In this document: piece by piece, positions 1-3,000 of the stretch | Layout of the letters: each line of letters opens with the position of its first letter | Numbering within the stretch: the stretch's first letter is position 1 | Virus record (IMG/VR): IMGVR_UViG_2698536618_000016 | Span: 1 to 5,643 of that record | Direction: 5' to 3' (one strand) | Length of the DNA: 5,643 nt | DNA from: a virus | Lineage: Duplodnaviria; Heunggongvirae; Uroviricota; Caudoviricetes | Program-made: the position numbers

Positions 1-3000
1 ACGGACTGCCCGTTGACGGACTTCAGGGGAAAAACGAGTATTTTTAGTCATCCTGTTTACCTCTTTCTCAGGAAGTTTAGTCTCCAGGATTCCCGGGGCG
101 GTTCAGTATCGAACAGAAAACAGTGACGATCTAACCCTTCAAGAATATTCTACGATTGTTCTGTTTAGGAAAAGCAAGGCGGGAAGTCAGGAGATAAGTC
201 ATTGATAAAGTGGCGGAGAGAGGGGGATTTGAACCCCCGGTAGAGTTGCCCCTACTCCGGTTTTCGAGACCGATGATACCGAATCGCAAAATCAAAAGGT
301 TATAAATTTTTCTTGGAATAAATGTCTTAAAAACATACACGAAAAATCAATAAATTACGTTGAATTCAATAAGAATATTCCAAGCCTTCTTTGAGTTATT
401 TTTGACCAGTTTGCTGTTTTTCTTTCTGATAAAATATTTCCTGATATCCCTTAACATTACTGATACTCACGTAGTGAATTTATGAGCAATCCTAATCCAT
501 GCATGGCGTGTGGTGCCTGTTGTGCATTTTTCCGCGTCTCTTTTTACTGGGCTAAAGTAGATGATGCTGGCGAAAGGTTTATCAGAAAACCGTAGCGCCT
601 TCTTGCATACGACGTGTCTGCGGTTTTATATAATCTCGACCAGAAACCTCTTATAAAAAGTCGATACACAAATATCATGGATAATCACCACCCTCTGACG
701 AAGAATATCTGATGAAATTAATCGCCCCTCTCCTGAGACCATTGCGCTGGGGTAAATTTGTAACTACCTGTGTACAGCGAGGTGTCGTATAGCACGCCGT
801 CAGGAAATGCAAGGTGTCCCCGATATCCCCGACTACGAGTCAGCAAACAAAGTGATTGGCTGGCAATCCACATCACAGAAATGGACAATGCTACTTTATA
901 ATCGAGTTTGGTAGCCACCTTGATGATCACTTTTAAAAAAAGCGTTTACACAAAATGGTAAGCAGGCTCACAGGCCCTCCCTCTAATCATCCACATTGTA
1001 AAGCTCCTTTGTTGTAAGTAAGGTCCGGCACCCTAATAATATCAAAAGGATCAAAATCATCACTGCATCCTTCCACAAGGCATTTCATTGCTCGTAGATC
1101 ACCATATAGCTCTGAAGAGTGGTGCGGACATAACAGATCATAAACTTTACATTTAGAACCTTCTTTACCTTGTCTACTTTCCTCAATTTTTACTTTCAAT
1201 GAATACAGAAAAAAAAGCTCCCTGATATAACCATCCCTGTCATCTATCGTCCTCCCCTCCCTCAGTGCTCCGACAACCTCATCAGTATTTTCATTTCTCA
1301 CCTCAAATACACTATTTCTCTTATCCATCAGCCCACTTACAAAAGCACTTAGCTCTTGATAAATTTCCTCAAGCTCATTACTATTTCTGGCATTTGAGTA
1401 TATAGAGGTCATAACATCAAGTTTATCTTGTAATTCAGGAGTAAGAAAATGCTTATGATTAAGTTCACTTACTGATTCCGGAGTCGAAGGGTTACCTCTT
1501 CCTGATACATACATCCATGAATAAAGATTTGCTGAAGAGCCACTTGTTGGTAACATATCAAACCCCCCTTAATAAATATTATAAAAAATATGGCTGTATA
1601 AAAATATTATACCTTACTTAATACCACACTAATAAGATCTTGCTTTCCTCCATGATAAGATTGCATGATTTCATGTCTACTCCATGAAATATCAGAAACA
1701 TTATAAGATGATATATCTATTGGATTAAATTCATTTCTCACACGATCATATAAAACATTTGTTTCTGTTGTATCAACAAAAAGAATTCCTTTTTTTCCAG
1801 TCTCTCAAACATATCATAAATAGCATGCTCAGCCTGTGCTGGCAAGGACGAAATATTTGAAAGCGATTCTCCATTTATTTTATCCATTCTAATACCAATA
1901 ATATCTCTATTATCGCCATATATTTTCTCTGCACTCCCGGTACCATAATACTGGTTGAAACAACGAACTTCGCTTGTCACCTCTTCATGGCTTTGAGATA
2001 TAGTAAACATCTTCAACACTTTTGTTGTATTTTCCATATCTTCATACACGACAGCATTACCACCTTTACCAATAACGTTACCTGGCACGGGTGATTTGTT
2101 GTTACTAAGCCTCAGCAACGCTGACTGAGTATAATCCGCTGGCGGTAACTCCGGCTGCGCATAATCCACTGGAGGTAAATCAGGTCTGTTCGAACGAACA
2201 GTTCCTCTTTCTATAGTCGTGCTCACTGTCGATGAATTCAGCATAGCCTCAATTTTTCTGGTGATCTCTCCCTTAGGCCATCCCAGTCTATACAGCATAT
2301 TAGTAAAACATCCACTATGACTCTCTCTTGTCACGCAAAACCTATTATCACTTAAAACAACGCGATATGTTCTGTTGCTAACCTTTACTTGCGCCCCATT
2401 ATCAGAGTGAGCGGCAGCATCCCTTACAGAGGGATAAAACACGATTATCAGGCAAAGTCAGGTTTCTGGTTAAAGAATTCCATGAACATCCCAAATTTAT
2501 AGAAGAGGGCGATAACATACATTTCAACCTTCAAAATAAACCTATCTAATTATTCCTAACAAACATCCACCTGACATGACAACAAAAACCGGAGCCGGAC
2601 TCCGGTTTTTGTGAAGCTGTCGGCTATTTCATTCCGCCAATATTTTCCCACCTCCCGTCAGCACGCAGGATTTGCAGTGGTCTTACCACACACTGTATCT
2701 GCTTTTTATCCGCATCCAGTATCACCACCTGCGTGATTACCCTGTCCTGCTCCGGGATAATACCATTCTCATCTGACTCCAGGATGTCTGCCGGCCCCAG
2801 TCGCAGTTGTGCTGTAAGCGACTGCACGTGTTCACGGCCATCATGCTTTCCGCAACCACACAGACGCTGCATAAGTTTTTTTAGTATATTCATGTCATTC
2901 TCCTGTTCTGCCTGTATCACTGCCCACTTCATCCAGCCCCTTAACATCCTGCCACGGCCCGTCACCAAACCTGACCTGCAAATGCTGAAAAAACCCCTGA

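Follow-up and report, generated by a model that had tools for sequence, protein, structure and literature searches.

The window analysed here, a stretch of 5,643 nucleotides, begins within an IS629 element, the left inverted repeat (IRL) of which ends at the canonical terminus and there abuts native spacer DNA downstream of the tRNA gene serU. The reading that we favour, to which we would assign a probability of roughly 0.85, is that this is the IRL end of an IS629 copy located in the spacer between zinT and serU, 105 bp beyond the attR core of an integrated prophage, and that the copy is likely a simple, full-length insertion. The window is the exact reverse complement of the entire 5,643-bp draft contig CYGF01000079.1 (GCA_001285485.1), and its boundaries are assembly breaks rather than biological ends, with base 1 lying in IS629 and base 5643 in the prophage gpJ gene, both of which are repeats. 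Since the window is the whole contig, without an extended contig beyond it, the far end of the IS and the target duplication are unreadable here. The visible fraction amounts to 8% of the element, the remaining 1,205 nt lying outside the contig, and the break at 105 nt into IS629 would reflect the failure of a short-read assembler on a multicopy repeat. The element thus accounts for the end point of the contig and for the effector locus being unlinked to zinT in the draft assembly. The features to which we refer below are as follows.

1-105, minus strand: left end of IS629 (IS3 family), nt 1-105 of the element; 100% identity over 105 nt, the contig ending within the element
81-105, minus strand: IRL, terminal inverted repeat TGAACCGCCCCGGGAATCCTGGAGA; defined by IRL/IRR agreement at 23/25 positions and by the terminus at the empty site
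1-51, minus strand: start of orfA, 17 codons, MTKNTRFSPEVRQRAVR; frame still open at the edge of the window
106-109, no strand: predicted 4-bp target-site duplication GTAT, deduced from the IRR junction of a related genome; second copy outside the window
106-210, no strand: chromosomal spacer native to the locus, past the 3' end of serU and toward zinT; part of 106-272, which matches serU loci without a prophage at 99-100% identity
211-272, minus strand: displaced att core, the 3' 62 nt of tRNA-Ser(CGA) serU; alignment to the intact tRNA in locus L002 breaks after 272
273-986, no strand: non-coding prophage end with a YkgJ-family gene remnant at 482-571 (plus strand); predates the IS
987-1556, minus strand: nleF, intact effector cargo; annotated nleF in strain F8704-2, with a Pfam NleF_casp_inhib match for the product
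1611-2522, minus strand: nleH pseudogene, frameshifted, the reading frame being split into three ORFs

The IS629 end in the zinT-serU spacer

On the minus strand, positions 1-105 correspond to nt 1-105 of IS629 and are identical at all 105 positions to deposited copies named "IS3 family IS629". The reverse complement of this segment is TGAACCGCCCCGGGAATCCTGGAGACTAAACTTCCTGAGAAAGAGGTAAACAGG-ATG-ACTAAAAAT…; read from 105 to 1, TGAACCGCCCCGGGAATCCTGGAGACTAAACTTCCTGAGAAAGAGGTAAACAGG is followed by ATG ACT AAA AAT…. Comparison of the 105 nt with complete E. coli genomes returned 100% full-length matches to loci annotated as 'IS3 family transposase' (E = 4e-47), comprising 5,741 records in 3,553 of the 5,426 genomes, while in the phage record LC567824.1 the same bases fall in a region annotated by its depositor as 'insertion sequence: IS3 family IS629 / IS629 transposase OrfA'. 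The 1,310-bp IS629 of LC567824.1 shares with the window the IRL, the orfA start and the first 17 codons, no difference being present in the visible part. According to the ISfinder convention, elements with approximately 95% or more nucleotide identity are considered the same IS or an isoform of it. IS1203 and IS3411, which are isoforms of IS629, have the same length and organisation; the IS1203-like copies at loci L013-L015 are approximately 95-96% identical overall to the IS629 reference and differ from the window in its visible part, for example at position 14 of the inverted repeat in L013 and L015, and the L013 copy bears the PGAP name 'IS3-like element IS1203 family'. Because the visible piece shows no mismatch to the IS629 copies of LC567824.1 and of E. 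coli Z1323HEC0393 (CP148357.1; locus L007) and 5-7 mismatches (98-100/105) to the IS1203-like isoforms, it is assigned, on nucleotide identity, to IS629 proper; a single mismatch separates it from the copy at locus L016.

IS629 was first described in Shigella sonnei and is abundant in EHEC O157:H7. Members of the IS3 family transpose by a copy-out-paste-in route via a circular intermediate, catalysed by the OrfAB product of a -1 frameshift, and generate duplications of 3-4 bp. As a 1,310-bp member of this family, the element in question would encode OrfA together with the OrfAB transposase through such a frameshift. Its orfB, with a DDE/rve catalytic domain, would lie outside the window; in related full copies this part is present and annotated with a 'programmed frameshift' and an AL1L pseudoknot.

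The precise terminus can be deduced from genomes that lack the IS, in which the empty site reads gctgaatgtcaca/gtatcgaacag (the slash marking the junction), thereby placing the terminus of the element (TG…CA) at window position 105. Matches to the flank begin at 104 rather than 105 because the chromosome also has 'ca' at this point. The segment at 81-105 is identical on the minus strand to the annotated IRL of IS629 and starts 5'-TG. The initial annotation, made from the sequence alone, had given the inverted-repeat end as 74-105, and its outer limit at 105 was borne out; since the IRL and IRR of a full IS629 copy agree at 23 of 25 positions, beyond which similarity falls off, the inverted repeat proper extends over 81-105 and does not begin at 74. 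The same annotation had recognised an IS3-family element at the start of the window with an orfA start at 51, and both points are upheld by the terminus and the complete identity described above and by an ATG at 51-49 on the minus strand (nt 55-57 of the IS), from which the OrfA frame runs off the window edge at base 1. The 17 visible codons are identical to the N-terminus of full-length OrfA, an HTH protein, the gene for which is annotated 'IS629 transposase OrfA' in LC567824.1. It had been stated beforehand that the lack of an IS3-family terminus, or an OrfA reading frame closed inside the window, would speak against this identification; the terminus is present and the frame is open.

Adjacent to the IS, positions 106-272 are 99-100% identical to the prophage-free serU locus, which lies between zinT and mtfA in most E. 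coli genomes. The native 90-nt serU tRNA, identified by ARAGORN as tRNA-Ser cga in locus L002, corresponds to window positions 211-300, and homology ends at 272/273. Scans of the window for an intact tRNA (ARAGORN) or an Rfam match found none, in line with the truncation of the serU copy that it holds. An attR site at serU consists of such a partial 3' tRNA copy situated between native chromosome and phage DNA, and past 272/273 the window continues into a prophage end with nleF, nleH, tail fibre, lom and J genes; the prophage is an nleF/nleH-carrying lambdoid with attR at its tail-fibre end. The distance from the IS to the outer edge of the att core is exactly 105 bp (106-210), in agreement with the earlier proposal of an insertion about 105 bp outside the att junction, while the inner edge (272/273) lies 167 bp away. 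Judged from these alignments, the IS629 copy is located outside the prophage, in native chromosome beyond the att core, and its orfA is oriented away from the prophage and toward zinT.

The genes zinT and serU face each other with their 3' ends across the spacer that holds the IS, and no gene is interrupted. The IS629 copy lies in this non-coding spacer between two convergent genes, most likely as a complete and simple insertion with a 4-bp duplication of GTAT. Since no gene is interrupted and the att core is intact, the insertion is probably neutral in itself, and with the att core 105 bp away prophage excision should be unaffected. The zinT-serU interval is itself polymorphic, as yodB (cytochrome b) is present in some lineages (loci L013-L015, compared with L001/L002); no gene is annotated between zinT and serU in F8704-2 and O26 RM10386, which are relatives of the window.

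The prophage end and its cargo

Past position 272 the order of prophage features is the YkgJ remnant, nleF, the frameshifted nleH, tail-fibre genes, lom and the 3' end of gpJ. It had been suggested in the initial annotation that the IS may explain the degraded appearance of the flanking region, a suggestion which is contradicted by relatives without it: positions 106-986 are 100% identical in the IS-free loci L004, L005, L006, L008 and L009, positions 104-1000 are 100% identical in IS-free F8704-2, and L006 and L009, likewise without the IS, match the frameshifted nleH at 100% identity. The IS is therefore ruled out as the cause both of the flank degradation and of the nleH frameshifts. The nleH lesion is real and inherited, since the same sequence is found in these IS-free relatives and is annotated 'frameshifted' in F8704-2 and 2011C-4251. 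Approximately 110 complete genomes carry the same prophage end without this IS.

Several further features of the prophage were observed. The YkgJ-family cysteine-cluster gene, the 5' remnant of which (482-571, plus strand) lies just within the prophage end, is annotated as an incomplete CDS in F8704-2 and is kept in the approximately 110 complete genomes that have this att end. An exact-protein look-up for NleF returned 10 related loci. The tail-fibre gene at 2895-4208 (minus strand) contains long collagen-like Gly-X-Y repeats; its exact 437-aa ATG-start product is recorded on CYGF01000079.1 only, no exact protein is on record for the 439-aa GTG-start ORF, and its DNA is at most 96.4% identical to that of otherwise near-identical relatives, such that it appears to be a hypervariable allele. 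For the C-terminal part of gpJ (4901-5643, minus strand), most related loci match over only approximately 240 nt at about 80-85% identity, in comparison with 100% for nleF/nleH; in locus L011 the match is limited to 87 nt at 98.9%, and none is present in L012 and L014. The prophage is thus a mosaic with a different tail-tip (receptor-binding) module. In locus L003 (CP034212.1), the nleF-to-zinT interval (10570-18600) also contains an IS66 element, an IS1 copy and a second integrase-bearing island, and an IS21 element lies between gpJ and lom, a pattern suggestive of tandem integrations at serU and of much IS traffic there.

Related junctions around the serU attR

E. coli Z1323HEC0393 carries a complete 1,310-bp IS629 between nleF and zinT (10690-11999 of locus L007), in the same orientation as that of the window and identical at 1,310/1,310 positions to the named reference in LC567824.1. 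Its IRR junction reads …GGTTCA/ATACTGTGAC (also given as …GGTTCA/ATACTGTGACATTC) and the IRL junction of the window reads …TTCGATAC/TGAACC, the two sharing, when placed on the sequence of the empty site, the four bases ATAC (106-109; GTAT as read in the window). This overlap matches the expectation for a simple insertion with a 4-bp duplication, from which the duplication of GTAT is predicted. Target duplications of IS629 measure 3-4 bp (PMC3271280), and the annotation of the IS629 copy in LC567824.1 includes one of 4 bp, CCAG. For a simple insertion the second (IRR) junction is predicted to read GCTGAATGTCACAGTAT/TGAACCGCCCCGGGTTTCC (also given as GCTGAATGTCACAGTAT/TGAACCGCCCCGGGTTTCCTGGAGAG); this was absent from metagenome contigs, and among complete genomes only Z1323HEC0393 has a match. 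The IRL junction of the window, that is, the insertion site with its IRL side intact, was found neither in the 5,426 complete E. coli genomes, in which all matches to the flank begin at 104, nor in metagenome contigs or GTDB species representatives.

On the prophage side, the IRL of the Z1323HEC0393 copy adjoins sequence corresponding to window position 868, and 762 bp (window 106-867), which contain the serU att core and the ykgJ remnant, are missing, without a duplication. The deletion leaves 119 bp before the nleF stop codon, and from its end the two sequences are 100% identical over 868-2600, while the tail-fibre and lom regions of Z1323HEC0393 are only about 95% identical to those of the window. 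The two loci therefore share the element, its orientation and complementary junctions, and differ in that the window keeps 106-867, which Z1323HEC0393 has lost. As compared at the nucleotide level, the Z1323HEC0393 locus resembles an insertion of the window's type that later suffered a deletion on one side of the IS, and is the state that would be expected after an adjacent deletion from the exact site of the window. The ends of IS629 promote such deletions by intramolecular transposition, IEE-assisted excision or IS-IS recombination. IEE-dependent excision is associated with IS-adjacent deletions ranging from a few nucleotides to more than 40 kb (PMC3271280, PMC9943667).

In complete genomes, IS629/IS1203-type copies were found no more than approximately 0.6 kb from the serU attR junction at loci L007, L013-L016 and L019 (~1340-2650). 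Simple insertions of the same element type, each with a 3-bp duplication, occur approximately 70-160 bp from the window's site: that of L016 (3841-5150; duplication GTT) is situated 66 bp further from serU, and that of L014 (3841-5150; duplication TAG) within the att core. In strains 2014C-3011 (L015) and UTME-6 (L013), the IRR of the copy (3841-5150 in both) lies in or near the window's site and the IRL abuts a truncated prophage in its PerC or holin region; the UTME-6 IRR is 3 bp off the junction predicted for the window and belongs to a different isoform. These two truncated prophages, and the 762-bp IRL-side deletion in Z1323HEC0393, lend support to the earlier proposal that IS copies can drive the deletion of adjacent prophage DNA, as all three occur at this locus. 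NCTC11151 and FY26, retrieved with a chimeric query, carry copies in the opposite orientation approximately 400 bp away, by which a strict orientation bias at the locus is ruled out.

Taken together, at least six independent copies lie within approximately 0.6 kb, two of them simple insertions and three joined to truncated prophage. In a rough chance estimate, approximately 17,000 chromosomal places, spread over 5,426 genomes with a size of about 5 Mb, would yield approximately 2 copies per 600 bp, against approximately 8 genomes observed in a 600-bp interval, and the significance of this locus as a hot spot is only modest. A preference of IS629 for prophage regions is already known.

Alternative readings and significance

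The principal alternative to a simple insertion is that the IS629 copy is real and that its IRR side is joined elsewhere through deletion, inversion or IS-IS recombination, in which case zinT would not be contiguous with it. The other end of the IS lies beyond the window, and at loci L007, L013 and L015 one IS end abuts DNA that is not its cognate flank, and a duplication is missing. Of the five copies in this orientation that were examined at the locus, three thus have a rearranged side, which makes a non-simple IRR side plausible in the window's genome, and only 21 of 47 IS629 sites in O157 genomes retain the duplication (PMC3271280). The inferred duplication is, in addition, 4 bp long, as opposed to 3 bp in both neighbouring simple insertions. 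However, the rearranged side in all three loci is the IRL (prophage) side, which in the window is intact native sequence, while the IRR junction of Z1323HEC0393 lies exactly where it would be expected, in the native flank on the zinT side. We therefore regard a rearranged IRR side as unlikely, though it is the most credible of the alternatives.

It is considerably less probable that the window holds a truncated or solo left-end remnant of IS629, which would be non-functional. Just 105 nt are visible and truncated IS629 copies are known, such as the 'tr*' entry for pO55 (PMC3271280), but a contig end approximately 100 nt into a repeat is the normal short-read signature of a multicopy full-length element, whereas across a single-copy remnant the assembly would normally have continued into the zinT flank, and the visible part is without mutation relative to active IS629. 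An assembly chimera, with no IS beside serU in this genome, is more improbable still: contig ends at repeats are error-prone and the exact IRL junction was not found elsewhere in the sequences searched, yet the join falls exactly at the canonical TG…CA terminus as in real insertions, an independent complete genome (Z1323HEC0393) has the complementary junction at the same site, and IS629-type insertions recur in the spacer.

A simple insertion beyond the attR core is thus the reading that we retain, and under it the copy would be full-length and selectively neutral. A wider proposal, which we advance tentatively and rate at somewhat less than an even chance, is that the window represents the intact precursor of the Z1323HEC0393 state and, more broadly, that the serU attR is a recurrent landing zone at which IS629-type elements erode or immobilise effector prophages. 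One ancestral IS629 insertion may, under this proposal, have been followed by the 762-bp one-sided deletion in the Z1323HEC0393 lineage; it is also possible that the IS629 of that strain represents an independent insertion at the same site. If the precursor relationship is true, the deletion took the attR core and locked the nleF/nleH prophage into the chromosome, since a prophage from which the attR core has been removed should be immobilised.

An IS629 end outside a prophage attR is an ordinary feature of a kind already known. Both the concentration of IS629 on prophages and its role behind many EHEC deletions are documented (PMC3271280, PMC9943667). The window adds one more copy of the commonest EHEC/EPEC insertion sequence, in a neutral spacer, and alone this carries little weight; the finding is of mild interest only for the precursor-product pairing with Z1323HEC0393 and for the recurrent IS629-type insertions around the serU attR. 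It marks a site where, as in related complete genomes, IS-mediated deletion can take away the attR core or the nleF/nleH cargo, and therefore has a bearing on strain typing, on prophage stability and on the reading of effector repertoires.
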